Below, piece after piece: positions 16,730-34,757 of a DNA stretch of 64,000 nt. The translations under genes and the position numbers were made by a program. Source of the DNA: Candidatus Eiseniibacteriota bacterium (GTDB lineage Bacteria > Eisenbacteria > RBG-16-71-46 > CAIMUX01); assembly GCA_903844735.1 (NCBI GenBank), contig CAIMUX010000121.1, forward strand, positions 3,005-67,004, read 5' to 3'. A model generated the notes under the pieces. The model saw only the letters and a program-made list of their open reading frames with translations. It was not told the DNA's origin and searched no databases. Within the stretch, counting starts at the first letter, position 1. Each line of letters starts with the position of its first letter.

Positions 16730-19000
16730 TCACCGACCCTTCGCGTCCTCCAGCATGCCGGCCTCGACCACGGCGAAGGCCGTCATGTTCAAGATGTCAT
16801 TCATTTCTGACTGCGGCTGGAGCACGTGCACCGGTTTCGCCATCCCCTGGAGGATGGGTCCGATCTGCTCCGCTCCGCCCAGCCGCTGCACGAGTTTGTA
16901 AGCGGCGTTGGCCGCCTCAAGCACCGTGAAGATGAGGACATTCGCCGTCCCCCCCGCGAGCTTGCTGAAGGGAAACAGGCTGGAGAGGAGCCCGGGGACC
17001 ACGGCGGTATCGGCATGCACCGGCCCGTCGACGACCAAGTCCGGCTCTTCCTTCGCGAGGATGCGCAGCGCCTCCTCCACTTCCGCGATCCCCGGCCCAC
17101 GGGCGGTCCCGAAGTTGGAGTAAGAGATGAACGCCACCCGCGGGATGACGCCGAATTCACGCGCCGTCTGCGCCGTCTGCCGCGCGATCTCGGCCAGGGC
17201 CCGGCCATCCGGCCGGATGTTGACGGTTGTATCGGCGAAGAAGTACATCTGGTCACGTGTGAGCATGACGTGGACGCCGCTGACCCGGCTCGCCCCCGAC
17301 TTGAGTCCAACGATCTGCACGCAAGGACGGATCGTCTCGGGAAGTCTCTGGGCGATCCCGGCGATCATGCCATCGGCGTCTCCCAGCCGCACCATCATCG
17401 CACCGAATTCGTTCGCCGAACGCATGGCGATCCGCGCGCCATCCAGGGTCTCCCCCTTGCGCTGCCGCAGGCGGTAGTACTCCTGGACATAGGCATCGAA
17501 CCGCGGGTCGTGCTCCGGATCGATGATCACGGTGTCGCCGAGGTCGAGATCGAGCTCGCGGCACTCCTGTTCGATCACCTCACGGCGTCCGATGAGGATC
17601 GGATGGGCCATCTTCTCCTCGCGCACCATGGCGGTGGCGCGGAGGATGCGGCGGTTCTCCCCCTCGGGGTAGACGATCCGCTTGGGTGCGCTGCGCGCCT
17701 TGTGGATGATCGTGCGCATGACCCCGCGGGTCTTCCCGAGCAGACTCTCCAGCTGGTCGCGGTACTCGTCGAGATCAAGCGGCTTCTGCGCCACCCCGGT
17801 TTCCATGGCTGCGCGCGCCACGGCCAAGGCCTCCCAGACCAACACGCGCGAATCGAACGGCTTGGGGATCAGGTACTCGCGGCCGAAGTGGAAATATTGG
17901 TCGCCATACGCTTTGCTGACCGAGTCGGGCACATCCTGCTTGGCCAGCTCCGCGAGGGCGCGGGTGGCCGCCATCTTCATCGCTTCGTTGATGGTGGTGG
18001 CGCGGCAATCCAGCGCTCCGCGGAAGATGAAGGGGAAGCCGAGAACGTTGTTGACCTGGTTCGGGTAGTCGGACCGCCCGGTGGCCATGATGACGTCCTT
18101 GCGAGCGGCCACCGCATCCGGGTAGGTGATCTCAGGATCCGGGTTGGCCATCGCGAAAACGATCGGGTTCGCGTTCATGTGCTTCAACCACTCGGGCTTC
18201 AACAACCCCTTCCCGGAGAGGCCGAGGAAGACGTCGGCTCCCTTCAGCGCGTCCTCCAGCGTGCGCGCCGAGGTCTCGCGGGCGAACTGCTCCTTGTAGG
18301 GGTTCATCCCTTCGGTGCGGCCTTTGTAGATCACGCCTTTCGTGTCGAGCATGAGAATGTTCTCGAGCCGGATCCCGAGGCTGATGTAGTGCTTGGAGCA
18401 GGCAATGCCGGAGGCGCCGGCGCCGGAAACCACAACTCTCGTATCTGACGCTTTGCGCCCAGTCAGTTCGAGAGCGTTGATGAGCGCGGCCCCCGAAATG
18501 ATGGCCGTGCCGTGCTGGTCATCGTGGAAAACCGGGATCTTCATCGTGCGCTTCAGCTCTTCCTCAATGATGAAGCATTCGGGCGCTTTGATGTCCTCGA
18601 GATTGATCCCACCAAAGGTGGGTTCCAGAAGCTGGCAGGTGCGGATGATCTCCTGCGGGTCCAGGCTGTCGATCTCGATGTCGAAGACATCAATGTCGGC
18701 AAAGCGCTTGAAGAGGACCCCCTTCCCCTCCATCACCGGCTTGCCGGCCAGAGCGCCGAGGTTGCCTAGCCCCAGCACGGCGGTACCGTTGCTGATCACC
18801 GCTACGAGGTTTCCGCGCGCGGTGTACTCGAAGGCCAGGTCAGGGTCCTTCTCGATCTCGAGACACGGTTCCGCCACCCCCGGGGTGTAGGCCAGCGAGA
18901 GATCCCTCTGCGTCAAGCACGGCTTGGTCGAGTTCACCTCGATCTTTCCCTTACGCCCTCGGCTGTGGTACTCCAGTGCGTCGCTCAATTTCTTCGTCAT
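16730..19000 (-). CDS. maeB: NADP-dependent malic enzyme with C-terminal PTA-like domain (catalytic residues intact)
   Basis: AYTPGV, KPVMEGK, GINLEDI, FHDDQHGT, GAGASG and GRSDYPNQVNN; AGGAGG RBS. Confidence 0.97.
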   Translation of the reverse strand: MTKKLSDALEYHSRGRKGKIEVNSTKPCLTQRDLSLAYTPGVAEPCLEIEKDPDLAFEYTARGNLVAVISNGTAVLGLGNLGALAGKPVMEGKGVLFKRFADIDVFDIEIDSLDPQEIIRTCQLLEPTFGGINLEDIKAPECFIIEEELKRTMKIPVFHDDQHGTAIISGAALINALELTGRKASDTRVVVSGAGASGIACSKHYISLGIRLENILMLDTKGVIYKGRTEGMNPYKEQFARETSARTLEDALKGADVFLGLSGKGLLKPEWLKHMNANPIVFAMANPDPEITYPDAVAARKDVIMATGRSDYPNQVNNVLGFPFIFRGALDCRATTINEAMKMAATRALAELAKQDVPDSVSKAYGDQYFHFGREYLIPKPFDSRVLVWEALAVARAAMETGVAQKPLDLDEYRDQLESLLGKTRGVMRTIIHKARSAPKRIVYPEGENRRILRATAMVREEKMAHPILIGRREVIEQECRELDLDLGDTVIIDPEHDPRFDAYVQEYYRLRQRKGETLDGARIAMRSANEFGAMMVRLGDADGMIAGIAQRLPETIRPCVQIVGLKSGASRVSGVHVMLTRDQMYFFADTTVNIRPDGRALAEIARQTAQTAREFGVIPRVAFISYSNFGTARGPGIAEVEEALRILAKEEPDLVVDGPVHADTAVVPGLLSSLFPFSKLAGGTANVLIFTVLEAANAAYKLVQRLGGAEQIGPILQGMAKPVHVLQPQSEMNDILNMTAFAVVEAGMLEDAKGR

Positions 19001-19185: not shown

Positions 19186-19340
19186 GGCTTCGGGCTTCGG
19201 GCTTCGGACTTCACGCTTCGGGCCTGAAAGCGTCGAGCCGTCTCGGCATGCCACGAATCAACTCGCCGTACCGGGCCACGGGTTCGGCGTGGTCCCCCGC
19301 ACTCATGGTCTGCCGTCCCGAAGCCTGAACTCCAAAGCCT
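19186..19340. repeat. Element bounded by inverted heptamer arrays
   Basis: Left arm (ggcttcg)x3-gacttca-cgcttcg-ggcctga at 19186-19227; right arm cccgaag-cctgaac-tccaaag-cct at 19317-19340, in the reverse-complement orientation. Confidence 0.7.
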
Positions 19341-19429
19341 TCCGCACGGCGTGTATACTCGGCGGACGCCCCCCGGTACCGAGGCGCGCGGGACAGGCCC
19401 GCGCGGCCCGTGTGCGGAAAGGAGTTCCC

Positions 19430-20482
19430 TTGCCTGACGCCCAAACTCTCGTGGAGGCCCTGCGGAAGGTCCTCTTCCCGGGAATCGAACGCGACATCGT
19501 CTCTCTCGGCTACCTCAAGGACGTCCGCGAGGAGGACGGTCGTTTCGTCGTTCGCCTGGAGCTCTCGACAAACCAGCAGGGAGCCGGCGAACGGATCGAG
19601 GAGGAGGCACACGTCGCGCTGCGCGCCACCGGGGTCCCCTACCGACTGGACATGCGCGTCCGCTACCTCCCCTCGGGAGCGGAGGAAGCCGAGGCCGAGC
19701 CGGAGCGGCTGCTCGACGGGGTACCGGTCAAGATCGCCGTGGCCAGCGGCAAGGGGGGGGTGGGCAAGTCGACTGTCGCGGCCAATCTCGCCATCGGCCT
19801 GGCCCGGCTTGGCGTCAGGACCGGGCTCCTCGATGCCGACATTTACGGCCCGTCGATCCCGATGATGCTCGGCCTGGAGGGGGCGCAGCCACGCGTGGCG
19901 GACCACCGGATGGAACCAGTGGAGCGCTACGGCATCCGCTCCATGTCGATCGGCTACCTGGTGGACCGCCATACTCCGATGGTCTGGCGAGGCCCGATGG
20001 CCGGCAAGGCAATCGAGCAGTTGATGAGCGACGTCGATTGGGAGGGAACCGAGGCGATCGTCTTCGATCTTCCCCCCGGCACCGGCGACATCCACATTTC
20101 TATCTCGCAGAAAATCCGACTCACCGGCGCGATCATCGTCACAACCCCCCAGGAGGTGGCTCTCATCGACGCCGGCAAGGGCGTCTCCATGTTTCGCAAG
20201 GTTTCGGTGCCGATCCTCGGCCTCGTGGAAAACATGAGCCTCTTCATTTGCCCGCACTGCAACGGCCAGACCGAGATCTTCGGCTCTGGCGGCGGCGCGC
20301 GCGAGGCAGAGCGTCTGGGCGTCCCTCTCCTCGGGCAAATTCCGATCGACCCCCAGGTGGTTCTGGGTGGGGACGAAGGCTCCCCGATTCTCGTGCGCAA
20401 CCCGGAATCTCCCGCCGGCCAGGCGTTCCTGGAGCTCGCCGCCCGCGTGGCCGGAATGACCGGCCTTCGCCCCTCGGGCTAG
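19430..20482 (+). CDS. mrp: Mrp/ApbC (NBP35 family) Fe-S cluster carrier ATPase
   Basis: N-terminal DUF59-like region, ASGKGGVGKST, DADIYGPS, WRGPM, DLPPGTGD and ENMS..CPHC. TTG 19430 follows AAGGAG. Confidence 0.94.
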   Translation: MPDAQTLVEALRKVLFPGIERDIVSLGYLKDVREEDGRFVVRLELSTNQQGAGERIEEEAHVALRATGVPYRLDMRVRYLPSGAEEAEAEPERLLDGVPVKIAVASGKGGVGKSTVAANLAIGLARLGVRTGLLDADIYGPSIPMMLGLEGAQPRVADHRMEPVERYGIRSMSIGYLVDRHTPMVWRGPMAGKAIEQLMSDVDWEGTEAIVFDLPPGTGDIHISISQKIRLTGAIIVTTPQEVALIDAGKGVSMFRKVSVPILGLVENMSLFICPHCNGQTEIFGSGGGAREAERLGVPLLGQIPIDPQVVLGGDEGSPILVRNPESPAGQAFLELAARVAGMTGLRPSG

Positions 20483-20591: not shown

Positions 20592-21659
20592 TTGGATCCG
20601 GCGATGAACGGCGCGGCGAATCCGGACCGCCCGGACTACCAGGTGGCCCTCTGCTGTCCTGCCTGCGGGGAACGCTCGTTACAGCGGGTCATGAAGTCCA
20701 ACCTGCTCCTCCCGGTGCGGGTCCCGGGGCACCCGTTCTTGCGCGCCTACACCTGGTCTGACGGCAAGCCCAGAGAGTCACATCCGTTGCATTTCGGTGT
20801 CTGTTTCTGCCCGTGCTGCCACTACCCGGATATCGAGGCCGACTTTCGCGATGGAGCGGGCCGCACCCACGACATCAGCCGTACGCTACGACGGTTCTTC
20901 GTGGAGCAGTTGGTCGGATGGGGCCGGCCACTCGCCGACATTCTCGGAACCGGCATGGAGAGCATGGAAGACCCCGAGCGGACGACGCGTCTCCACCTCG
21001 CGGCCATCGCGACGCAACGTCTGATCTATCCCGAACTGTGGCGCCGCCGCGAGATCGGGCAGCTCTATCTTCGTCTGGCTTGGCTCTACCTAGACGAGAA
21101 GCACCTGCGCTGGGATCCGGATCACCCCACCGCACCGCCTACCTACGAGATCGAAGGACCGGGCTACGCACGGATGCAGGCAGTGCTCGCCCAGCTTGAA
21201 CCGATCCGCGCGGCGTGGCCCGAGATTCCCCTGGACGAAGAGTCGACCCGACGCGAGGTCCTCAAGTTCCACCAGGAGGCGTACACCCGGCACAGCGGCA
21301 CCCTCACGCCGGAAGAGAGCGTGGCCGATGAGCGTCTCCTGGCCGTTCTGTTCGGCTTGAACGGGGACCAGGAGATGGCGAAAGAAATGTTCGAGCGTGC
21401 CCTCGACTCCTGCATCCGGCTGCGCCAGGAAGCCACCCAGCAGCAGTCAGGGGCCTGGAACAGCGGCCTCAGCGCCACCGAGACCAAAGCGCTCGCGATC
21501 CGCATCCAACGTCTCAGCAAGAGCGCCGAGGGGATTAGGGATGAGATGAACACGGCATTCCCTCCCCCCAAGGCCCGGGTGTCGGCTCTCCCGCCTTCGC
21601 GCAGGAGCACCACCGCATCATCTCCCAAGAAAAGGCGGATCTTCGGCATCTTCGGCTAG
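20592..21659 (+). CDS. DUF2225-like protein (CxxC...CxxC zinc ribbon plus helical repeat region)
   Basis: CPACG ... HPLHFGVCFCPCCHY ... IGQLYLRLAWLY pattern; GGAGGAG RBS before TTG 20592. Confidence 0.7.
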   Translation: MDPAMNGAANPDRPDYQVALCCPACGERSLQRVMKSNLLLPVRVPGHPFLRAYTWSDGKPRESHPLHFGVCFCPCCHYPDIEADFRDGAGRTHDISRTLRRFFVEQLVGWGRPLADILGTGMESMEDPERTTRLHLAAIATQRLIYPELWRRREIGQLYLRLAWLYLDEKHLRWDPDHPTAPPTYEIEGPGYARMQAVLAQLEPIRAAWPEIPLDEESTRREVLKFHQEAYTRHSGTLTPEESVADERLLAVLFGLNGDQEMAKEMFERALDSCIRLRQEATQQQSGAWNSGLSATETKALAIRIQRLSKSAEGIRDEMNTAFPPPKARVSALPPSRRSTTASSPKKRRIFGIFG

Positions 21660-23865: not shown

Positions 23866-24873
23866 CTACGTCCGGAGCAACTTGTCGACTTCCCGGCAGG
23901 TCTTCTGTACTGCATCCGCCGATAGCGCCAGACCGTTCTTTTCCTGTGCGGTCAGGTCCACCTCGATGATCCGCTCGATCCCGTTCTTGCCGATGATCGC
24001 GGGCACGCCGACGAAGAGATCCCGCACGCCGTACTCCCCCTGCAGCAGGCAGCACACGGCCAGGATCTTCTTCTTGTCATAGATGATCGCCTCGGCCATC
24101 TCGAGCGCGCTCAGCGCCGGCGAGACGAAGGCGGAGCCGAAGCCGAGGAGTCCGACCACCTCGCCGCCCGCCTTGCGCGTCCGGTCTTCGATCGCGTCCA
24201 GCCGGTCGGGTGCGATGAACGACTCGACGGGCATGCCCGCGATGCGGCAACAACTGCGCACCGGAACCATGGTGTCACCGTGCCCGCCCAGCACCATCGC
24301 CTCGACGTTTTCCACGCTGACCCCGGCCTCCTGCGCCACGAAGTACCGATAGCGAGCGGAGTCGAGCACCCCCGCCATGCCCAGCAGGCGACTCTTCGGC
24401 ACACCGAGTCTCTTGTACAAGGTATACACGATGGCGTCGAGGGGATTGGCAATCGATATGATCATCGCCCTGGGACAGTGCTTCCGGATGGCGTCGGCCA
24501 CCTCCCCGGTGACCTTGAGATTGATCGCCAGCAACTCCTCGCGCGAAGGGAACGTCCCGTCGGCACGCGCCTTGCGCGGCACCCCGGCGGTGTTGATGAC
24601 CATGTCGCACCCGTCGAGAATGTCGTAGTCCCGGCTTGCCTGGAGCACGACATCGCTGCCGATGAGCGGTGCCCCTTCGGCGATGTCCAGAGCCTTGCCC
24701 TGGGCGACCGATTGCTTGCGCACCACGGCCTGCTTCTCGGAAGGATCGTTCGGGTTAACGAAGGGAGCGGGGTCGGTCACGGCCACGACCCTGGCGAGGC
24801 GCCGGCGGGCCAGTTCCTGCACGAGAACGCCGCCGATGAATCCGCCGCCGATGACGCCGATCTTGTCCAACAC
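23866..24873 (-). CDS. mdh: Malate dehydrogenase (LDH-like MDH)
   Basis: IGGGFIG, GKALD, TAGVPRK (Arg specificity residue), NPLD, GVLDSAR and LGGHGD; GTG 24873 follows AAAGGAG. Confidence 0.93.
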   Translation of the reverse strand: MLDKIGVIGGGFIGGVLVQELARRRLARVVAVTDPAPFVNPNDPSEKQAVVRKQSVAQGKALDIAEGAPLIGSDVVLQASRDYDILDGCDMVINTAGVPRKARADGTFPSREELLAINLKVTGEVADAIRKHCPRAMIISIANPLDAIVYTLYKRLGVPKSRLLGMAGVLDSARYRYFVAQEAGVSVENVEAMVLGGHGDTMVPVRSCCRIAGMPVESFIAPDRLDAIEDRTRKAGGEVVGLLGFGSAFVSPALSALEMAEAIIYDKKKILAVCCLLQGEYGVRDLFVGVPAIIGKNGIERIIEVDLTAQEKNGLALSADAVQKTCREVDKLLRT

Positions 24874-25142
24874 GGGTCGGTCTCCTTTCATGGATTTCGG
24901 CCGGGGCCACGCCATCGAGAGCGTTCCGGCCGGCCGGTGTCTGCATGCCGATGCGCGTCAGACGACGAGGAAAGCGCCGCCGCATCATCGAGAAGCATCA
25001 CCGGAAGGCCGTGATTGTCAAGCTCTCTTGCGGCGATCTGAGAGTCGGAGCAATCCAGCTTCGGTCAGACGCACGCCCACCGAGATCGCCACGAAGATGG
25101 AGTCGCGGCCGGGAAGAGAGTATTCTTTGGCGGGTAACACGA

Positions 25143-28100
25143 ATGGATGAAGAGACACCCAAATCGCCGACGCCGACGACGGGTCTGGATCGCCCCCTCG
25201 AAGCCACGGGCCTCGAGGGGCCCTCCGAGACCACGCGCCTCGATGGGCCCTCCGAACGCACGGACTTCGCCCCCCCCCCGCAATACACCGGGACCAATTT
25301 CGGGGCACTGGAGCCCGCGCTTCGGGACCTGGAATCCCAGTTCACGCTGGTCATGGGCCGTCCGGAGCGCGTCGTGGAGGCGTGCCGAATCCTCTCCGTC
25401 CAACTCGAGGCGGCGGACGACCCGGACCTCGCGGATCGTTGCCACGCTCGGGTAGTCACTCAACTGCACGTGCGGCAGGGCGGCGTCGCGCAAGCGCTGA
25501 TCCCCTTCCTGGAGGAGCGAGCGCGGCGCGGACCGAACCCTCGCCGCATTATCCTGAGCCTCCTCGTAGCCCGCGATGATGTTGCGCGGCGCCACGGGCT
25601 TCGACTGGCGTGCGAGATGATCGAGTCGGGGCGGATCGCAGCCGACGTCGCGGCGATCCGGGGCCTGGCGTTCGCGATCGAGGAAGACGAGGCTGCGGGG
25701 AGGGATGTCGCGCTTCTGGAGCGGGTCAGAGATGCCTTGCGGGGCATCAATCTCGCCCCCACGTCTGGGGAGCTGGTGGACCACGGGCCGGTTGCGCGTG
25801 GTGCGGAACCCCTCTCCCCCGCTTCCGCTGGGCTGCACGACCGGCTTGAGGCGCTTCTCCTGCAGGCGCCGGACCCGAGAGTGCGATTCCTGGCCGCCCG
25901 GCTCCTCGATCTCCCGGGAACCCCCGTGCCCGCTGACCGGCTGGCGCGCCTCTTCGGCGCCGAGACGGCTGCCGTGCTCGCCCCGTATCTGGCGTTCACG
26001 CGGGCCACGCACCGCAACATGGTGGAGCTGACCCCCGAATCACGAGTTTCCCCCGCGCTCCTTTCCTCGATGCAGGACGCGGAGCGCGCCCTCGGCCGGC
26101 CCCTGCTCGGCGAAGTGCTGGGCGAACTCGGCTGGGACCGCCTCGCCTGGGGCATCTCGTGCCGACGCCTCGTGGGCTTGAGCCTGGACGGAGGGTTCCC
26201 GCTCGCCGTCACGCCGGCCGAGGCGATGCTCCTCGACTCGTGCGGGCCCGCGCGGCGCACATGGGACCGTTTCCTCGTCGTGGCCCATGGTGGGTCGGCG
26301 TCGGGTGAGAACGACAACGACATGGAAGCGACGGCCGTCCAGCGGTTTCGCAAGTATAACATCCTCCACGCGGAATTGCTGGGCGAAATCCTCGAGGTCG
26401 CGCCACTCACCCCCGCCAAGGTGCGCCGGATCGTCGAACGAATGGAACAGGTGGTCAGCCACTTCGCCGTTCTGTTCAGAGAGCATTCCGAGGATGCGAC
26501 GCGGGTCGAAGCCTGCTTCGCCGCCCTCCGCGATCGGGCCATCCGGCTGATGGCGGAGGCGCCCGATGACCAGCCGCTGCAGGCCGAGGTGGCCCGCGTC
26601 GTGCAGATGTTCGAGGATCCGCGATCACTTGACGATGTGCGCACGCTGCACGGCCTCAAGCGCTACCTGCACCAGCAGGGACTGCGTCTCGCGTTTCGCG
26701 CTTTCCGTTCCGGTCGCGCAACCAACCGGACCGTCGACGTAGCCATCGCCAACGCCAGTCGCGTCCTCCAGGTGGTTCGGCGGATTCGCTACATCGACTT
26801 CGAACCGGACCCGGGAGCCGAGCCGGGAGATCTCCCCTACCCGGTCGCCCTCATCGCTGAGGTACTGGGCCGCCGCCTCGTCCACGGAAAGATCGAGTCG
26901 CCCGACTTCGAGATCCTGGCCTACGGGAACGAAATCCAGATCTTCATCGGGTTCCGTAATCATCCGGTTTTCCTGCGCCTCGATCTCTCGCCGCCCCAGC
27001 GCGGCGGCATGATCGACCTTGAATACTACGGCGTGAGCCAGTACGAGCTCGACCGCCACCCCGATCTTTCGCTTCAGTGGGTGCAGCGGGTGTTCCGCCG
27101 CCTCGACTTTGACGTCCGCGTCGAACAGTTCCGTCTGCACATCCGCTACGACAAGGAGCGGGCGCTCGACTTGGGCGACCTCCTCGCGCATGTGCGCATC
27201 CTCGGTTACCTCTTGCCCCACTTGATGGACCTCGACTGGGTGATCGCCGTGCTCGACTATCCAGAGACGGCCAAGGCGCAGGTCGCCGACGCGTGGGCCG
27301 ACCTCATTCCTGACTGGGGCTGGCTCCCGATCGCGGAACTTCTGACCGCGGACCGACGGCACATCCTGCGCGGAATCGCCGCGGACCCGGCGGGAGAACG
27401 CGAGGTCCGCTGGGATGGACACGGGGAGTATCGCGACCGATTCATTGGCGTGCCCGATCGGGCGGTATGGGGTCGGATCCGTGCGCAACTCGAAGCGGGC
27501 GGCCTGGCCCGGTTTGTCCCCTGGCCGGAGTTGACCGAACTTCCGGTCGCGCAAATTCCGCTGGAGAAGTTTCTCTTCACGCCCCTCCGCGAGGCCGTAC
27601 ACCTCGGAGGCCTGCGAGAGACTCATGCGGGGCCCATGCCGACGGCTCCCGACGGGACACCCTCACCGCACGAGGCCGAGGCGTTAGCACAGATCCTTCT
27701 CCGCGGCGGGGCGCCCCTCGATGAAGCGGCGAGGATCGCCACCGTCGTCGGATCGATCGAGCGACATCTTCGCTTCGTCACGAGCGGCAGCATCCAGGGG
27801 TACCCGGTCCAGCGGGCCACGCTTGTTTTGCGCGGCGAGCGGGTGGAATTGTCGGTCCTGAGGGACGCCGACGGCATCGCGCGACTCGCGCTCGCTGACG
27901 ACTGCCCGATGCAGAGCTGGACCGGCACCCGCGGTCGATCGCATCTCGGCGTCGGACCCCGACTCGATTGCCGCGAGCTGATTCGGCGGCTGCGTCGCGA
28001 CAACTACGTGGCCGTCGCCTACGAGTCGCCAATCGAGCAGGACGGCCGACGGGCGGCGCTCACTGCCGTCTTCGCCGCACCGAACGCGCTGGCCCCGCCC

Positions 28101-30572
28101 GGCCACTCCCCCGGCGACCTAGTCATCGAGGGGATCGTAGCCTCGTCCGGCAGGGCGGCCGGTTTTGCACGCCTTGGCACCGAAGGGCGCTCGCTGGATG
28201 AGCTGGACGGTGCCATCCTCTTCGCTCCTGCGTTCCGGCCGGACGACACGCCGCTTCTTCGCCGGTCTGCCGCGATTGTCTCGACCGGTGGAGGGATTCT
28301 GAGCCACGCCGGGCTGATAGCACTCGAACTGCACAAGCCCGCGCTCGTCATCTCCGGTCGTTGGAGGAAGGATCCCACCGATGGGGGCACGGCCTCCTTC
28401 GAGGGGACGCCGGATGGCAGCAGCGCGCTCGCCTACCGGCACTTCGACTTTCGGGAGGACGAGCGGGCGATCGGTCCGTACGCTGTGCTCCTGCGGCGCG
28501 ACCTGCACGAGCGTGAGCAGATTCTTCGCGAGGGAGATCTTGTCGTGGTGGACGCCGAAGTCGGAACCCTCACCGTTCTCGGGCAGGATCGCGACGCCCT
28601 CGCTCTCCAGCGAGAGCTGCGCCAAATCGACACGGTCGCCGGGGAGCTGGGACGGGAAGAGGCCGGACCCCGGCTCCTTCTCCTGCGCGGGCGGTGGCAC
28701 CGGGCTGTGCACCAATTGAAGAAGCTCCTTTCCCGCATCGACCGACCCGCGCTAGCGCGCCACGCCGCGCGGGAGCTGCTCTTCGCGCGCAGCGCCCCGT
28801 CGTCGATGCCCGGCCGCGACGACGTCGGAGGGCTGCTCCACGCGCTCTTCGCGAATGCGGCGGTAGGCGAGGCCGCCCGGCTGGCGGCGCGGCGACAGCA
28901 CGTCGAACTGGCCCGGCGGCACGGGGCCTATGTCCGCGAGGCGCTGAGGATCATCCCGATCACGGACAGCGTGCCGGAAATTCTTCACCTCCGCCTGGGT
29001 GTGATCCAGGTGCGCAGGCGCCTCGACGCGCTCGCCCGACTGCTGAACTCGGTCGGCATGGCCACGGCCTATGCCGGACAGCATCCGGACCTCGACTTCT
29101 GCGCGCGGCGGCGCCTCGATGAACTGCGGGAACAGCTTCGCCGTGAGTTGGCGTCGACCTCGGACAAGGAAGGAACATCGGACGCGGCAAGTGCCACCAA
29201 CGATGGCGGGCCGTCCTGGATCCGGCGGCATCGTCTCGAACGTCTGGAGTCGCTAGAACGCGTGTTGCCCGGAGCGGATGATACGGCCGTCACTTCCGCG
29301 GAGAGCGCGATTCCCCGGGAGAGCGCGGCCTCCTACGAGGGCGCGGCCGGCGCGGATGGACTGAGAGATCGGCAAACCGATCGACCGGAGAGAGCCAGGA
29401 GCCTCGCAGCGCAGCGTCGCGACTTGGCACGCCGTCTCCCCGGGCGCCTGATCCTCGACTCCCGGGACGGCGGACGCGAGCTCGCTCCCCTCATCGGTAG
29501 CAAGGGCGCCAACCTCGGCGAGATCGCACGGATCCTCGGACCCGATCGGGTCCCTCCGTGGTTTGCCACTACCGACGCGGCGTTTCAGGAGCTCATGGCC
29601 GGTCCACCGGGTCGCGCGGCCGCGGCGGTGGGTATTGATGCGGCTTGCCCGTCGCTGGCAGCGGCCATCGACGAAATCCTGGGGCGACCGGACAGCCGCG
29701 CAGCACGGAAGGCAGCGGCCATCCGGCAGCTCTGGGAAGGAGTGCCGCTTTCCCCGCGCCTCGAGGCCGAGATCGACGCGGCGTACCACGCCCTGGGAGA
29801 GGGGTGCTTCGTCGCCATCCGCTCTTCCGCCTTCGAGGAAGACACAGAGGGCAGCTCGTGGGCCGGACAGTTCGACACTTTCCTTTTCATCCAGAGCGAA
29901 GAGGCGGTGCGCGATCACGTCAAACTGGCGATGGCGAGCCTGTGGACCGAGCGGGCCCTCGTTCACCGCGAGGAGGACGGCGACGTGACGACGCGGCGAG
30001 GCGACGGCGATGTCGTATCGAGCGAAGAGGCCGGCGACCCGACGATGGGGCGAGGTGGCGGCGTCATCGTCCAGAGAATCGTGGACGCACGGGTGGCCGG
30101 CGTGCTGCACACCCTGTCCGCCACCGCCGGCCAGGCCCGCGAGATGGTCATCAACGTCGGCCTCGGTCTCGGCGAGGGGGTCGTCTCGGGGACGGTCGAG
30201 GTGGACCACATCGTCGTCTCGCGCGAAACCTCCCTCGAAGAGGATCCCCTCCGCGTTCACTACCTCGTGGGCGACAAGAGCAGCCGGATCGTCTTCGACC
30301 GGCTCGCCGGCTCCGGGACGCGCCGCGAGGAGACCCTCTACCACCAGCGCTTGCGTGCGGCCCTCGAGTACAGCGATCTCGGAGATCTCGTCCGCGCCGC
30401 CGCGAGCTTAGAGCGCGTCTACGGGTTCCCCCTCGATATCGAGTTCGCCTTCGAGGAGGACTCCCTCTACATTCTTCAGGTGCGACCCATCGTCGCCTTT
30501 CAGAACGCGCTGCGCGCGACGCTCGAACAGGCCCCGCTGACCCCGGTCGTCGCGCACGGCGGAAAGGATTAG
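25143..30572 (+). CDS. Giant PEP-synthase/pyruvate,water-dikinase-like protein: unknown N-terminal ~1000 aa, phospho-His swivel domain, C-terminal ATP-grasp (PPDK_N)
   Basis: GGGILSHAGLIALELHKPA (His at ~28305) precedes GSKGANLGE, VAIRSSA.EED...AGQFDTFL, GLGEGVVSG and DIEFAF...LQVRPI (~29490-30490). Start uncertain; the ORF is open from 24945. Confidence 0.85.
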   Translation: MDEETPKSPTPTTGLDRPLEATGLEGPSETTRLDGPSERTDFAPPPQYTGTNFGALEPALRDLESQFTLVMGRPERVVEACRILSVQLEAADDPDLADRCHARVVTQLHVRQGGVAQALIPFLEERARRGPNPRRIILSLLVARDDVARRHGLRLACEMIESGRIAADVAAIRGLAFAIEEDEAAGRDVALLERVRDALRGINLAPTSGELVDHGPVARGAEPLSPASAGLHDRLEALLLQAPDPRVRFLAARLLDLPGTPVPADRLARLFGAETAAVLAPYLAFTRATHRNMVELTPESRVSPALLSSMQDAERALGRPLLGEVLGELGWDRLAWGISCRRLVGLSLDGGFPLAVTPAEAMLLDSCGPARRTWDRFLVVAHGGSASGENDNDMEATAVQRFRKYNILHAELLGEILEVAPLTPAKVRRIVERMEQVVSHFAVLFREHSEDATRVEACFAALRDRAIRLMAEAPDDQPLQAEVARVVQMFEDPRSLDDVRTLHGLKRYLHQQGLRLAFRAFRSGRATNRTVDVAIANASRVLQVVRRIRYIDFEPDPGAEPGDLPYPVALIAEVLGRRLVHGKIESPDFEILAYGNEIQIFIGFRNHPVFLRLDLSPPQRGGMIDLEYYGVSQYELDRHPDLSLQWVQRVFRRLDFDVRVEQFRLHIRYDKERALDLGDLLAHVRILGYLLPHLMDLDWVIAVLDYPETAKAQVADAWADLIPDWGWLPIAELLTADRRHILRGIAADPAGEREVRWDGHGEYRDRFIGVPDRAVWGRIRAQLEAGGLARFVPWPELTELPVAQIPLEKFLFTPLREAVHLGGLRETHAGPMPTAPDGTPSPHEAEALAQILLRGGAPLDEAARIATVVGSIERHLRFVTSGSIQGYPVQRATLVLRGERVELSVLRDADGIARLALADDCPMQSWTGTRGRSHLGVGPRLDCRELIRRLRRDNYVAVAYESPIEQDGRRAALTAVFAAPNALAPPGHSPGDLVIEGIVASSGRAAGFARLGTEGRSLDELDGAILFAPAFRPDDTPLLRRSAAIVSTGGGILSHAGLIALELHKPALVISGRWRKDPTDGGTASFEGTPDGSSALAYRHFDFREDERAIGPYAVLLRRDLHEREQILREGDLVVVDAEVGTLTVLGQDRDALALQRELRQIDTVAGELGREEAGPRLLLLRGRWHRAVHQLKKLLSRIDRPALARHAARELLFARSAPSSMPGRDDVGGLLHALFANAAVGEAARLAARRQHVELARRHGAYVREALRIIPITDSVPEILHLRLGVIQVRRRLDALARLLNSVGMATAYAGQHPDLDFCARRRLDELREQLRRELASTSDKEGTSDAASATNDGGPSWIRRHRLERLESLERVLPGADDTAVTSAESAIPRESAASYEGAAGADGLRDRQTDRPERARSLAAQRRDLARRLPGRLILDSRDGGRELAPLIGSKGANLGEIARILGPDRVPPWFATTDAAFQELMAGPPGRAAAAVGIDAACPSLAAAIDEILGRPDSRAARKAAAIRQLWEGVPLSPRLEAEIDAAYHALGEGCFVAIRSSAFEEDTEGSSWAGQFDTFLFIQSEEAVRDHVKLAMASLWTERALVHREEDGDVTTRRGDGDVVSSEEAGDPTMGRGGGVIVQRIVDARVAGVLHTLSATAGQAREMVINVGLGLGEGVVSGTVEVDHIVVSRETSLEEDPLRVHYLVGDKSSRIVFDRLAGSGTRREETLYHQRLRAALEYSDLGDLVRAAASLERVYGFPLDIEFAFEEDSLYILQVRPIVAFQNALRATLEQAPLTPVVAHGGKD
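25176..25256. repeat. Degenerate 27-bp in-frame tandem repeat, 3 units
   Basis: Encodes TTGLDRPLE / ATGLEGPSE / TTRLDGPSE. Confidence 0.7.
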
Positions 30573-30578
30573 AACGGC

Positions 30579-32837
30579 ATGATCCGACGCGAAGAAAGCC
30601 TCCGGTACCACGAGGGAGACCGGCCGGGCAAGATCGAAGTCAAGATGAGCAAGCCCTGCCTGAGCCCGCGGGAGATGCGCCTGGCCTACCTTCCCGGTGT
30701 CGCATGGCCCGTGCGGGAGATCGCCGACAACCCGGCCAACGTCTGGCGCTACACCGCGCGCGGCAACCTCGTCGGAATGGTGAGCAACGGGAGCGCAGTC
30801 CCCGGGCTCGGTGACGTGGGCCCCGCCGCCGCCAAGCCGATCCAGGAGGGGATCGCACTGCTCTTCAAGCGGTTCGCCGACATCGACGTCTTCGATCTGG
30901 AGCTCGACGCGCGGGACCCGGAACGGATCGTCGACTTGGTGCGCACGCTGGAGCCGACCTTCGGCGCGATTTGCATCAAGGACATCCGCGCGCCCGAGGG
31001 GCTCGAGATTTATGATCGGCTGCGGGAGACGATGTCGATCCCTGTCTTCCACGAGAATTTGTACAGCACCGCGATCGTGGCCATGGCGGCTCTGATCAAC
31101 GCCCTCGACCTCGCGGACAAGGAGATCTCGTCGGTGCGGGTTGTCATCTGCGGCGCCGGCACCGTCGGTCTCGGGTGCGCGCGCCTGCTCACGGCGCTGG
31201 GCCACCCCCCCGAGAACCTGCTCCTCTACGACATCCGGGGGCTCGTCTCCCCCGACCGGGAAGACCTGCACAGATACCAGAGGGACTTCGCCCGCGACGA
31301 CGCGGCGCGCACCTTGGAGCAGGGGCTCAGGGGCGCCGATGTGTTCCTCGGCGCCTCCACGGGCGGCGTTCTGACCCCCGAGATGATCCGCTCGATGAGC
31401 CGCTTTCCGATCGTCTTCGGCATGGCCACGCCGGCCCCTGAGATCGCCTACCAGGAGGCGCGCAGCACGCGGCGCGATGCCATCGTGGGCACGAGTTTCG
31501 GACAGGACCCGAATGCCATCGTCGACCTCCTGAGCTTCCCCTATGTTTTCCGCGGCGCCCTCGACGTGCAGGCCAAGGGAATCTCCGAACGGATGATGCT
31601 GGCCGCGGCGCGCAGCCTCGCCGAGCTGGCGCGCGAGGAGGTCCCGGAGGAGGTGAGCCGCGCCTACGGCGACGAATCGTTCACGTTCGGCCCGGACTAC
31701 CTCCTGCCCATGCCGATCGATCCGCGCATCCTCGTGCGGCAGTCGGCCGCCGTCGCGCGGCAGGCGATGGAGGAAGGCCTCGCCGGTCGCTCCGTGCCGG
31801 TGGACGGGTACGAGGAGTCGCTCGCGGTGCGCCTCGGAACCACCCGCGAGTTGGTTCGCCGGCTCATCACCAAGGCGCGTTCCGTCAACCCGCGGATCGT
31901 CCTGCCCGAAGGAACGAGCGAGAAGATCCTCCGCGCCTGCGCCCTTCTCATCGACGAGGGAATCGCCAACCCGATCTTGGTCGGCACCGAAGAGGACGTG
32001 CACCGTGCGGCCGAACGCCTCGGGATCGACCTCGGCGGCGTCGCCATCGTCGACCCGGCCCACAGCCCGCACTTCGACGCCTACGCGGCGGAGTACCTCA
32101 CCCTCTGCGGTCGGCGCGGTGTGACTCCCGACCTCGCACGGACCCGGATGACCCACGCCCGGCACTTCGCGGCACTGATGCTACACAAAGGCGACGCCGA
32201 CATGATGATCTGCGGCGCCACCGACCACTACGCCGAGTCGATGCGAACCGTCCTGGAGATTATCGGCCCCGCCCCCGGCGTGCGGCGGATCTCCAGCTTG
32301 CACATGGTCCACCGTCCCAAGGAGGTCTACTTCCTCGCGGACTGCTCCGTGAACATCGAGCCGGATGCCGAGGATCTCGCCGAGATCGCGCTGCTTGCCG
32401 CGCGGACCGTGCGCGCGCTTGGGATCGAGCCACGAGTGGCGATGTTGTCGTTCTCCAACTTTGGAAGCGTCGATCACCCGCTGGCGCGCAAGGTGCGGAC
32501 AGCCACGCGGATCGCGCGCGAGCGGAACCCCGGGCTTGTTATCGAGGGGGAACTCCAGCTTGAGACGGCGCTCGACGCGAAGATCCGGCGGCGGTACTTT
32601 CCGTTTTCGGATCTCACGCAGAATGCGAACGTTCTTGTTTTCCCCGACTTGCAGTCGGGGAATCTCTCGTTGCACTTGTTGCAACAGATCGGCGAGGGGA
32701 TCGCGGTGGGTCCGATCTTGATGGGGACGCGGCTGCCGGTGCACGTGATCCAGCAGGGATCACCGGTGGATGATGTGGTGAATCTGGCGGCGGTGGGGGC
32801 GTTGCAGGTGGCGGGGGCGCTGACTGGAGGGATGTAG
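30579..32837 (+). CDS. MaeB-like malic enzyme/PTA fusion paralogue with degenerate active site
   Basis: Full-length and colinear with 16730-19000, but MEGK is QEGI, NLED is CIKD, HDDQHGT is HENLYST and GRSDYPNQVNN is [11 protein letters not shown]. Confidence 0.9.
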
Positions 32838-33293
32838 CTGGGCGGCGAGCAGCGCCCGACACGCCAAGACTTCTGCGCGGCGCTGAAGTTGTTCACAAAG
32901 AACCTGCCGGTCGGAGACCCCGTGCGGTCTTCATCCGAAACAGCGCATGGCAAGGCACCCGATGCCGCTTGGCCCGATGATCGACCGGCCCGATCGCGCA
33001 GGTTCGGCCGGCGGCGGTGGCTTCCGTGCGTGGCGCTCGTCCCGGGCACGATCATGGCCCTGGTCGGTGCTGGGCAGTCCGGCGCCGAACGCGTGAACTG
33101 CAGCGAGTATCCGCGCTGGGTCGGACGCTGGAGCCATCAGCGTCGCCGTTCGGGGAGACATCGCCTGCGTGCCTTGGCCCGCCGGTGGCGCTCCGAAAGG
33201 CAACCTCGGTCTCACGAACCGGGCGATCACTGGCTTCAGATTGGCCACTCGACATTCTTCCCGCACGGGACACGGCGGGACAGACAACACCAC

Positions 33294-34757
33294 TCAGAAA
33301 CGCGGACCGGCCAAGGCCTGGGCCTCAAACCCATTTCCATCCGTGGCGAGGTCGAGGCTCAACAGACCGGCGAACGGCACGACGAGGCGGAGCCCCGCTC
33401 CGACGCCCCAACGCCCGCGCACGCTGCCCCGGGACCAATCGCCACGATTCCAGATCGCCCCAGCGTCGACGAAAACCGCTCCATCGACGGTGAGATCGAA
33501 GGTATTCGAAAACGGCGGCGGCAGGGTAATCTCCCAGCGGGGAAGCAGCGGGAGGCGCTCCTCCACCCACCCCGACCAGCGATTGTCCCCTTCGTAGACA
33601 TCGGGGCGGTGCCCGCGCAGGTCCGTGGGACCACCGAGGTCCAGCCTTAGAAACGCGGGCACGCCCCCGCGGCTCACGACCGTGCGGGAGGCGAGCGTGA
33701 GCACCGCCACGCCCGCGGCGCGAACGAGCATGGCGTCGAGCGCGTACCGCTCCATCGCCAAGCTCCCACCGAGGAGCCCGCCGTGAGCCGCGGCCCGCAC
33801 CGCGAGTACCTCACCATGGCGCGGGCGTGCTCGATAGTCGCGCGTATCGATCCGCGCTCCGGCCTCGAACCAGCGATGGTCATCGCGGCGCGAGGTGGCG
33901 GCGCCCGTGAAGTCGGGCGGGGGGGTCGCGTCGGGGTGCGCACGCACCTGCTCCCAGCCCGCACCGAACGGGAAGGACAGATGCAGCCCGCGCATCGGAG
34001 CAAGCCCGGCATTGATTCCAGAGTGCCGTTCGATCGAGCCCTGCGAGAGACTCCGAGTCCGCCGCAGGCTCCCCTGCGCGCTGAAGCCAAGCCGCCGGCC
34101 GAGCACCCAGCGGGTCGCGTATCCGGCCTGCAGATAGCGCCGCGCTCCCGTCCCGGCGGCGATCCACGCAGACCGGGCCATGCCGCCGAGGTTCAGCGTT
34201 GACGCAGAAGCACCGTAGGTGAAGCCCTGTCCCTGTTCCCACGAAAGGGTCGGCAATGCGAGAAAATCGGGACGCTCACGCACACGGACAACGAGAATCG
34301 GACGATCAAGGCCTCGATCGCGCCGAGGGACAAGGCTCACACTGGCGAAGAGGCCGAGATCGAGCAGACGCAATCGATCGCGCTCCAGATGATCCCAGTC
34401 GAGATGTGCCCCGGCACGGGCGGATAACTCGCGGCGCACGATCAGCGAACGGGTTCGATCGAGTCCCTGGATCTCCACCGCGAGAAGCGGCCGGTCGATC
34501 CAGAGTCCCGGATCCTCGGTTGCCGCGCCGGAGGCCGGGAAAGAGACGGCGACCAACGACACCAGCAGCAGCGTCACCTGCACCGACAGCCGAGGCACCT
34601 GCCCCGGCCGCCGAATCACCCAGGACGACCTGACCTTTCGAGGCACCGAAACCAGGGGAGAACACGAGGGGCGGGGGCGCATGCCAAGACCGACGCGAGC
34701 CGTCACTTCGGCACTAGGGCGATGGCCCAGTAACCTTGAGGCTGGAGGTGCCGTCAT
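33294..34757 (-). CDS. Omp85/BamA-TamA family outer-membrane protein (single POTRA plus barrel)
   Basis: VEIQGLDRTR..IVRREL...LGLF (POTRA), LGGPTDLRGH, FVDAG, GVGAGLRL and terminal Phe. Start probably somewhat downstream of 34757. Confidence 0.85.
   Translation of the reverse strand: MTAPPASRLLGHRPSAEVTARVGLGMRPRPSCSPLVSVPRKVRSSWVIRRPGQVPRLSVQVTLLLVSLVAVSFPASGAATEDPGLWIDRPLLAVEIQGLDRTRSLIVRRELSARAGAHLDWDHLERDRLRLLDLGLFASVSLVPRRDRGLDRPILVVRVRERPDFLALPTLSWEQGQGFTYGASASTLNLGGMARSAWIAAGTGARRYLQAGYATRWVLGRRLGFSAQGSLRRTRSLSQGSIERHSGINAGLAPMRGLHLSFPFGAGWEQVRAHPDATPPPDFTGAATSRRDDHRWFEAGARIDTRDYRARPRHGEVLAVRAAAHGGLLGGSLAMERYALDAMLVRAAGVAVLTLASRTVVSRGGVPAFLRLDLGGPTDLRGHRPDVYEGDNRWSGWVEERLPLLPRWEITLPPPFSNTFDLTVDGAVFVDAGAIWNRGDWSRGSVRGRWGVGAGLRLVVPFAGLLSLDLATDGNGFEAQALAGPRF

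Follow-up and report, generated by a model that had tools for sequence, protein, structure and literature searches.

What does a dikinase do that lacks the domain defining the chemistry of phosphoenolpyruvate (PEP) synthase and PPDK, carries an orphan module, and appears operon-locked to an altered paralog of malic enzyme? This question is raised by two adjacent genes in a stretch of 64,000 nucleotides (nt) from a Candidatus Eiseniibacteriota bacterium (GenBank assembly GCA_903844735.1, contig CAIMUX010000121.1, positions 3,005 to 67,004 of the forward strand; hereafter the window), which has a G+C content of about 66%. The first gene (25143..30572, + strand) encodes a dikinase-like protein of 1809 amino acids (aa), P0003, with the ATG start used in the public protein collection. 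The second (30579..32837, + strand), assigned by Pfam and synteny, encodes a MaeB-like partner of 752 aa and begins 6 nt past the dikinase stop. An earlier reading of the bare sequence, here called the original prediction, had described the dikinase as a PEP-synthase-like protein in which the phospho-His domain precedes a C-terminal ATP-grasp domain and in which no PEP/pyruvate barrel is present. It had suggested a Pfam scan for a canonical PEP-utilizers_C barrel and a structural search of the N-terminal part as tests. Its coordinates and motif positions were accurate: the start at 25143 agrees with the public ATG, the codon of the catalytic histidine lies at 28305-28307, and a segment reading TLHGLKRYLH...LMDLD, to which we return below, lies at 26643-27237.

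Pfam places the mobile domain of PEP-utilizing enzymes (PF00391) at residues 1088-1193 (E 4.6e-10) and the PEP-synthase-type ATP-grasp domain PPDK_N (PF01326) at residues 1515-1852 (E 2.3e-55; profile positions 2-312 of 328), both counted from position 24945, where the surrounding 1875-aa frame begins; all other residue numbers refer to the 1809-aa form. In the latter numbering PPDK_N occupies aa 1449-1786 and is followed by a short tail only, so that the predicted order of the two domains is borne out. No other domain appears in Pfam at E <= 0.1, PEP-utilizers_C (PF02896) included. The phospho-histidine swivel domain (aa 993-1165; 28119..28637, + strand; recognised by PF00391 and by matches to the PPDK His domain) contains the catalytic His1055 in the motif STGGGILSHAG, and no fewer than 90% of the members have this histidine in each of two alignments, one of 28 and one of 93 sequences. 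Two insertions interrupt the swivel domain, a beta-hairpin common to the whole family and 12 aa peculiar to the lineage of the window. The ATP-grasp domain (29487..30500, + strand; Pfam, NCBIfam and PDB profile) forms the C-terminal end of the protein and displays the conserved motifs RSSxxxED, NxGLGLGEGVVSG, PLDIEF and LQxRP; over both alignments RSS..ED, GLGLGEG, PLDIEF and LQxRP as well as the T-GG-SH motif of the swivel domain are invariant or nearly so. The two domains are separated by a region of about 275 aa (aa 1166-1440; 28638..29462, + strand; delimited by alignment), which includes a conserved LRGRxLRAxHQ motif and matches neither Pfam nor the PDB profiles. With a PPDK_N ATP-grasp domain and the catalytic His motif T/SxxGGxxxH, as given for dikinases in PMC12167813, the protein belongs to the dikinase superfamily.

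Similarity to named enzymes is confined to this phosphotransfer machinery. The best partial NCBIfam match is PEP synthase (E 1.7e-61), and PEP synthase 8a8e in the PDB matches the ATP-grasp domain with E 1.6e-69; by both the NCBIfam and the PDB profile comparisons, this domain is nearer to PEP synthase and RPH than to PPDK. Searching all PDB sequences with a profile of 28 family members retrieved PEP synthase, RPH (5hv1, 5fbs) and PPDK through the ATP-grasp and His parts only, and the roughly 920 N-terminal profile positions found no PDB match except a designed helical repeat (E 0.013). None of the full-length NCBIfam models comes near its cut-off, and each matches through the ATP-grasp domain only: PEP synthase TIGR01418 scores 201.6 bits against a cut-off of 739.75 (model positions 10-341 of 784), PEP synthase NF005057 208.3 against 598, PPDK TIGR01828 25.6 against 843, rifamycin phosphotransferase NF041857 153.7 against 999, and the PigC model 154.9 against 1300. 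A (beta/alpha)8 barrel was likewise not found in AlphaFold2 models of aa 61-1000 and 525-930, judged by secondary structure and fold searches, and a barrel within aa 1166-1440, a region outside these models and with no family match, is unlikely. Pfam, NCBIfam, PDB profiles and models thus agree with the original prediction that the PEP/pyruvate barrel is missing. Full-length score, TIM barrel and the order ATP-grasp, His, barrel are all lacking, and membership in the PEP synthase and PPDK families is refuted on these three grounds.

The N-terminal part, which the original prediction had singled out as some 1000 aa that would decide the substrate, a plausible role, turned out to be a module of about 930 aa with no clear match in Pfam, the PDB or fold searches. 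AlphaFold2 models built from the 93-row alignment are of good quality (aa 61-1000: mean predicted local distance difference test score, pLDDT, 88.3, and predicted template modelling score, pTM, 0.88; aa 525-930: mean pLDDT 88.8, pTM 0.85). They predict, in this order, an ARM/HEAT-like repeat, a beta-hairpin with a helical bundle, and two alpha/beta domains whose sheets are antiparallel. The ARM/HEAT-like helical repeat (aa 61-330; 25323..26132, + strand; AlphaFold2, Foldseek and VIA-align) is closest to importin-alpha in Foldseek (E 0.06) and to a designed helical repeat in VIA-align (Z 11.5), and several homologs align only from about aa 230 on. The beta-hairpin and helical bundle (aa 337-521; 26151..26705, + strand; AlphaFold2 and invariant columns) has R403, N406 and H409 as invariant positions of one helix and H503-G-L-K-R-Y-L-H-Q511 at the N-terminus of another, and VIA-align matches it with generic four-helix bundles only (Z about 9-11). 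Alpha/beta domain A (aa 529-725; 26727..27317, + strand; AlphaFold2 and invariants) is the best-conserved part, with E597, H607, R612, G622-M623, D625, S632, H639, R668, D670, K671 and D698-W699 invariant, and is followed by alpha/beta domain B (aa 741-952; 27363..27998, + strand; AlphaFold2), for which no fold match was obtained.

Foldseek, which the original prediction had proposed for this part together with AlphaFold, returned no match in the PDB at E <= 1e-3 for either model; the best match of the alpha/beta model was DR_1245 (E 0.024). Among the 48,161 chains searched with VIA-align, the 406-aa alpha/beta model reached at best Z 6.1 over 114 residues (root-mean-square deviation 4.3), three chains scoring Z >= 5 and not one reaching Z >= 8, and the 940-aa model matched helical repeats and bundles only. 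For these models the fold matches lie within the stated noise of VIA-align and are no proof of a new fold. Among 57 core sequences, Pfam at E <= 10 gave no recurring family, any weak match being shared by at most 4 of the 57 and all lying above E 0.004, and an ESM Atlas search of the module gave no usable match. The core itself (aa 385-790; alignment A4, comprising these 57 sequences) has 39 invariant columns, mostly charged or His, a composition that would suit a site where an anionic ligand is bound or converted.

How far does this architecture extend? A word-indexed search yielded 372 proteins at E <= 1e-3; the best 120 of these are 1438-1942 aa long and collinear with the dikinase, and 119 of the 120 carry PF00391 and PF01326. 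The names given by their sources go no further than 'PEP/pyruvate-binding domain-containing protein', 'phosphohistidine swiveling domain-containing protein', 'pyruvate, water dikinase' and 'hypothetical'. Scanning one genome per prokaryote species, we found relatives in 213 genomes, which span more than 12 phyla; the 78 loci retrieved all come from metagenome-assembled genomes. Holders include Acidobacteriota (Vicinamibacteria, Thermoanaerobaculia, Terriglobia), Desulfobacterota, Myxococcota, Bacteroidota/Ignavibacteria, Calditrichia and Zixibacteria, along with Eisenbacteria, Krumholzibacteria, Gemmatimonadetes, Planctomycetota, Verrucomicrobiota, Elusimicrobiota and others. In the phylum of the window the distribution is patchy, the core being present in 14 of the 151 genomes sampled there and in 10 of their 71 genera. 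A search for shorter or alternative architectures gave 46 matches, all of them close relatives (fragments or pieces consisting of the N-terminal module only), and several proteins of 860-970 aa with this module alone lie on long contigs. Comparing the core profile with 1,835,955,588 protein representatives gave 184 matches at E <= 1e-3, 130 of them at E <= 1e-30, all with the same architecture or fragments of it; the listed proteins of at least 1400 aa carry the core in their first half, the segment starting at residues 1-388. Judged by these searches, the N-terminal module is restricted to one architecture, and the alignments describe the dikinase family as conserved, about 1700 aa long and uncharacterised.

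These comparisons also bear on a further idea of the original prediction, namely that the TLHGLKRYLH...LMDLD segment resembles the C-terminal domain of deltaproteobacterial PEP-utilising proteins and that the dikinase is a permuted member of that family. No protein with the segment at its C-terminus was found, and all relatives found, those of Desulfobacterota and Myxococcota included, are collinear with the dikinase. Since the relatives are collinear and the segment lies in the first half of the listed proteins of at least 1400 aa, permutation is unsupported. Going by the aligned domain orders, His and ATP-grasp are reversed relative to PpsA and PPDK, not relative to the dikinase's own family. 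In two loci (L004, 6926-12063; L005, 6938-12044) the dikinase gene is read as two open reading frames (ORFs), one for the N-terminal module and one for His plus ATP-grasp, whose junction lies directly ahead of the His domain; in L004 they overlap by 4 nt, and in L005 the second piece carries PF00391 and PF01326. Either form may be a natural split or an assembly frameshift.

The partner, which the original prediction had overlooked and which we regard as the strongest clue, accompanies the dikinase almost without exception. It has the malic, Malic_M and PTA_PTB domains of MaeB in Pfam (a malic-enzyme-like, ME-like, domain at about 30579-31823 and a PTA-like domain at about 31854-32798, both + strand) and matches Bdellovibrio MaeB (6zng) with E 1.7e-203. 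At least 500 nt of downstream DNA are available in 66 of the 78 loci, the other 12 ending too early; in 65 of these 66, tblastn detects a MaeB-like gene of 57.7-80.2% identity directly downstream on the same strand. In the remaining locus (L034) a partner-type start lies at the same position, and the continuation is more divergent. Start of the partner and stop of the dikinase overlap in 39 of 62 loci, by 4 nt in 34, by 14 nt in four and by 1 nt in one. The partner (58-80% identity) is better conserved than the dikinase (33-69% best-segment identity). A canonical MaeB of 756 aa with intact catalytic motifs (16730..19000, - strand; Pfam and motifs), encoded 6 kb upstream of the pair, serves as an internal comparison, and the genome thus has a normal MaeB besides the altered partner. 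Because the partner is only 46.6% identical to this canonical MaeB as against 57.7-80.2% within its own group, we regard it as a distinct orthologous clade.

It is the active site that sets this clade apart. In Bdellovibrio MaeB, according to Harding et al. (2021; PMC7902834), E149 is the proton donor, D174 coordinates K107, which is the general acid/base, Y52 acts in tautomerisation, N300 contacts the nicotinamide, and the PTA domain of canonical MaeB is an acetyl-CoA sensor. Aligning 58 partners, we found the position of K107 occupied by I (24), M (22), V (5), L (4), A (2) or F (1) and never by Lys, that of E149 by K (52), S (2), R (2), L (1) or N (1) and never by Glu, and that of D174 by E (53), Q (4) or D (1). 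D175, the second Asp of the HDD motif and presumably a metal ligand, is replaced by N in 54, S in three and G in one, with no Asp; at N300 stand T (51), M (3), A (2), S (1) or I (1), with no Asn; and the second Asn of NQVNN is D in 57 and G in one. Two positions are kept, the tyrosine equivalent to Y52 in all 58 and the aspartate equivalent to D150 in 56 (G in two), as are the Rossmann glycines (CGAGTVGxG). The partner sequences hence lack the consensus catalytic residues of MaeB, all of which are present in the canonical MaeB of the window and in the second MaeB of locus L003, and 29 of 34 positions fixed differently in the partner clade fall in the ME-like domain. Because the catalytic residues are replaced throughout the clade, it is very unlikely that the partner is a working malic enzyme. 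On this residue pattern its active site is swapped for a mostly conserved alternative set and is not decayed. The PTA-like domain presumably is without the Ser-Arg pair of true phosphotransacetylases, the same as in canonical MaeB. A complex prediction with two copies of the ME-like domain and the His domain (score 0.00, mark 0.32) was uninformative either way.

The dikinase gene is real and no chance ORF of high-GC DNA, as is evident from full-length homologs (38-86% identity) and from indel-free contigs of other studies. A single open frame (24945-30572, + strand, 1875 aa) spans it. The dikinase stretch is present in lake-water and freshwater metagenome runs of several studies; contigs of three DNA runs from other studies cover it with point substitutions only and no indels, and in run X2 one contig of 10,972 nt covers 24900-32900 with 13 substitutions and no gaps. 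Two lineage-specific insertions, one of 12 aa in the His domain (about 28374-28409) and one of about 18 aa in the ATP-grasp domain (about 29973-30026), are both missing from the 86%-identical relative P0004; they are not assembly errors, since independent contigs carry them without indels. The N-terminal 60 aa or so (25143..25322, + strand) are of low complexity and align with close relatives only. An imperfect 27-nt tandem repeat of 2.6 copies (25195-25263, + strand; Tandem Repeats Finder) encodes a low-complexity T-G-L-D/E-x-P stretch confined to the closest relatives. In one metatranscriptome library, three contigs of 202-215 nt with 0-2 differences fall inside the two genes (25923-26132 and 28547-28748 in the dikinase, 30667-30881 in the partner). 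As the RNA library is stored as contigs and carry-over of DNA is possible, these near-identical matches give a weak hint of expression. Upstream of the dikinase gene there is no Rfam match of note, a scan for regulatory signals found no sigma-70-like promoter, and no terminator was found in the 6-nt intergenic spacer or in 560 nt scanned past the partner stop.

Further neighbours recur in few loci. Divergent from the dikinase lies a gene for a dehydrogenase of the LDH/MDH family (23866..24915, - strand; Pfam and tblastn), separated from the dikinase ATG by a spacer of 227 nt (24916-25142) and common only to the window and its closest relative locus, L001. That spacer holds no sigma-54-like site, the window giving 20 matches against 19.5 expected. 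Genes for the alpha subunit (PYC_OADA, HMGL-like and biotinyl domains) and the beta subunit (OAD_beta) of oxaloacetate decarboxylase are found no more than 7 kb from the pair in 7 of the 78 loci. They stand directly upstream on the same strand in three Acidobacteriota (L023:2217-3293, L031:3930-6948, L038:3165-6312), an arrangement that looks like one four-gene same-strand cluster, and downstream in three Ignavibacteria loci and one Bacteroidota locus (L048, L063, L069, L071). Activators with GAF and sigma-54 domains are found directly upstream of the pair in four loci (L010, L015, L062, L064), and the window has a sigma-54 activator with a GAF domain at 9910-11673 (- strand). Besides these neighbours nothing recurs near the pair, and genes for xenobiotic, aromatic or glycogen metabolism in particular do not.

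The genome of the window is 95.8% complete. Its only two PEP-utilizers_C matches are a canonical PPDK and a PtsI-like protein; GTP-dependent PEP carboxykinase (PEPCK) is present, and neither ATP-PEPCK nor PEP carboxylase (PEPC) was found in it. Canonical PpsA scores above cut-off in none of ten other holder genomes. Only 4 of the 151 genomes from the phylum of the window have PpsA, and the 14 that have the core are not among these; PpsA is rare there regardless of the pair, and we have dropped the idea that pair and PpsA complement each other, the absence carrying no weight. Besides canonical PPDK, the same genome has three more PPDK_N ORFs of about 1220, 610 and 1014 aa (L081, L083, L084), located at C96:2906-6843, where two of the three are adjacent, and at C30:21253-22356.

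Two apparent features of the neighbourhood were discarded. Fusions of the dikinase with the MaeB-like gene (ORFs of 2411-2593 aa in L012, L058 and L024) proved by Pfam and tblastn frames to be alternative frames or frameshifted assemblies, and the members of a cluster of 'convergent 763-aa genes' (c2) are shadow ORFs on the antisense strand of the MaeB-like gene. At this high GC content, ORFs in an alternative frame or on the antisense strand attain lengths of 700-2600 aa (L012, L024, L058, L002, L055 and the window); such spurious ORFs mimic fusions or convergent genes and are a trap for simple ORF-based analysis of gene context. The window also has ORFs of 253-375 aa that fall in no Pfam family, at 20592-21659 (+ strand), 32889-33650 (+ strand) and 19211-20338 (- strand), the last of which runs over a ParA/NUBPL-type gene of the opposite strand and probably is a shadow ORF due to the high GC content.

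Based on this dataset, we hypothesize that an active dikinase works with its altered MaeB partner as one system at the pyruvate/oxaloacetate/malate node, which as a whole we hold to be possible, if somewhat short of probable. Formation of His1055~P is the expected first half-reaction because both dikinase domains carry their conserved motifs: the C-terminal ATP-grasp domain would move the beta-phosphate of ATP to His1055, releasing AMP and Pi, by homology to PEP synthase, RPH and HpeHI (PMC12167813). The swivel domain would then ferry the phosphate to an acceptor site, with the N-terminal module serving as the acceptor side in place of the PEP/pyruvate TIM barrel. Dikinase and partner would be made from a translationally coupled two-gene operon, and near-universal synteny, start/stop overlap and the higher conservation of the partner suggest that the two proteins work as one unit. 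The acceptor could be bound by the invariant site of the N-terminal module, by the rebuilt pocket of the partner, or by both. Placement at the pyruvate/oxaloacetate/malate node follows from the origin of the partner and from the oxaloacetate decarboxylase and MDH neighbours. A leading candidate reaction would be the phosphorylation of pyruvate (as enolpyruvate) to PEP, or the reverse, other C3/C4 acids being possible too; the partner pocket would keep the tyrosine that tautomerises enolpyruvate and have given up the residues needed to transfer hydride and to decarboxylate. The sequence data establish the content and order of the domains, the conserved catalytic motifs of both dikinase domains, the confinement of the N-terminal module to this family, the near-universal synteny with its start/stop overlap and the substitutions in the partner; that the dikinase is active, that the two proteins associate and what the acceptor is are our inferences.

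Several observations weigh against this proposal. The module resembles no known substrate-binding fold, and pyruvate as the acceptor is a guess from context. Canonical PPDK and GTP-PEPCK already present in the genome leave no metabolic gap for a new PEP-forming enzyme, and the absence of PpsA from all ten of the other holders is uninformative. Oxaloacetate decarboxylase neighbours accompany the pair in only the few loci given above, and the apparent fusions of the two proteins are frame artefacts. Finally, a pseudoenzyme that senses a ligand would explain the lost Lys, Glu and Asp no less well than a new catalytic site would. A more specific form of the proposal, in which the barrel-less dikinase passes His~P to the orphan-fold module or directly into the rebuilt site of the partner and thereby provides a PEP route distinct from PpsA, PPDK, PEPCK and PEPC, appears unlikely. 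If true, a two-protein PEP system would be widespread among uncultured members of the Acidobacteriota, Desulfobacterota, FCB and PVC groups, and Myxococcota.

The foremost alternative, which we consider somewhat unlikely, is a regulatory or sensory system. The dikinase would be an autophosphorylating regulator resembling a His kinase, its phosphate going to a protein residue or a His relay and not to a metabolite, and the MaeB-derived pseudoenzyme would be a sensor of ligands such as NAD(P)H or acetyl-CoA, or else the target. All 58 partners have lost the malic-enzyme catalytic residues and kept the Rossmann glycines and a PTA-like sensor domain, as a sensor would, and sigma-54/GAF activators stand upstream of the pair in four loci. 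The N-terminal module, with its ARM-like repeat, five invariant histidines and a four-helix bundle, also has features of such a regulator, and VIA-align matches the helical bundle with CheA P1 (1tqg) at Z 9.2; this match is one among many bundles at Z 8-11, however, and lies in the noise range of VIA-align for helical bundles. In HPt domains the phospho-accepting histidine is found in mid-helix, whereas the HGLKR motif lies at the N-terminus of a helix, and no Hpt or receiver signal appears in Pfam at E <= 10 across the 57 core sequences. One-to-one operons with overlapping start and stop codons (39 of 62) moreover suggest stoichiometric subunits rather than a kinase and its target. A precedent for a PPDK-derived autophosphorylating regulator is VadK, as reported in a preprint (bioRxiv 10.1101/2025.10.30.685616).

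Less probable still, in our view decidedly unlikely, is a dikinase that phosphorylates an unrelated small molecule or polymer, as RPH, the phenol kinases or glucan water dikinase (GWD) do, the MaeB-like neighbour being loosely or indirectly involved. Partial NCBIfam matches place the ATP-grasp domain as near to RPH, PigC and RedH as to PEP synthase, the acceptor module has no known counterpart, and His before ATP-grasp is the order of GWD and also that of the PpsAB/HpeHI subunits (PMC12167813). Against this, neither a RIF-binding-like domain (Pfam, PDB profile search) nor a CBM45/CBM20 starch-binding module or any other CBM family (Pfam, E <= 0.1) was detected in the dikinase; RPH is not among the listed fold matches of the module models, lists which do not exclude RPH. 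Genes for xenobiotic, aromatic or glycogen metabolism are not recurrent nearby, and a loose link hardly accounts for a partner that is present in 65 of 66 loci, spans more than 12 phyla and exceeds the dikinase in conservation. An ordinary PEP synthase (pyruvate, water dikinase), the name borne by many relatives and suggested by the partial hidden Markov model matches, is almost certainly not what the gene encodes, given a TIGR01418 score of 201.6 against 739.75 bits through the ATP-grasp domain only, the lack of PEP-utilizers_C and the reversed domain order.

How carbon is divided among catabolism, gluconeogenesis and anaplerosis is governed by the PEP-pyruvate-oxaloacetate node, for which the set of enzymes is commonly taken to be complete. 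Any of these outcomes would be new for both families, be it a PEP-forming system, a dikinase acceptor or a regulator based on a pseudoenzyme. Automatic annotation as 'pyruvate, water dikinase' and 'NADP-malic enzyme' probably leads metabolic models of the holders to misassign two reactions. In the literature covered, with most subscription journals and bioRxiv supplements outside that coverage, we found no description of the dikinase architecture or of its pairing with a malic-enzyme-like protein.

With PpsA and PPDK the dikinase shares a homologous PPDK_N ATP-grasp domain, a swivelling phospho-His domain with its GG..SH motif and, presumably, the chemistry from ATP to His~P. It differs in that ATP-grasp precedes His there and follows it here, that no barrel was found, that an unrelated N-terminal module of about 930 aa and a spacer of about 275 aa are present, and that the full-length models failed. 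In glucan water dikinase the phospho-His domain comes before a C-terminal ATP-grasp domain, and the dikinase, with its His domain upstream of a C-terminal nucleotide-binding domain, has the same layout; the original prediction had drawn this parallel. The catalytic histidine of potato GWD is His992 (PMC12892837). Like the plant and algal GWD/PWD, the dikinase is large and has its PPDK_N domain at the C-terminus, after the phospho-His domain; unlike them, it is bacterial, is without starch-binding modules and has no neighbours from glucan metabolism.

In the two-component dikinases PpsAB, HpeHI and CreHI, as described in PMC12167813, a subunit combining acceptor and swivel domains is followed by an ATP-grasp subunit. 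Fusion of such subunits would give the order of the dikinase; these systems, and single-chain RPH too, likewise have no barrel, and the two-ORF forms L004 and L005 appear split just before the His domain. In contrast to these systems and to RPH, the acceptor module here is about twice as large and has no similarity to the RIF-binding or HpeH domain that our searches, which do not exclude it, could detect, and its context is central metabolism instead of aromatic catabolism or antibiotic resistance.

MaeB and the partner are alike in their malic, Malic_M and PTA_PTB architecture; what separates the partner is the replacement of the Lys, the Glu, the second Asp of HDD and the nicotinamide-contacting Asn in 58 of 58 sequences and the position of its gene downstream of a dikinase. 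VadK (Rv1127c), a PPDK-derived protein for which autophosphorylation and control of metabolic enzymes are reported in the preprint (bioRxiv 10.1101/2025.10.30.685616), resembles the dikinase as a family member that has reportedly moved off PEP/pyruvate chemistry, and by its description is set apart by a different architecture and lineage. Measured against all these systems, the phosphotransfer engine is already known, as is His before ATP-grasp in GWD and in the PpsAB/HpeHI subunits; what is new here is the orphan acceptor module together with an obligate, catalytically rewired MaeB partner.

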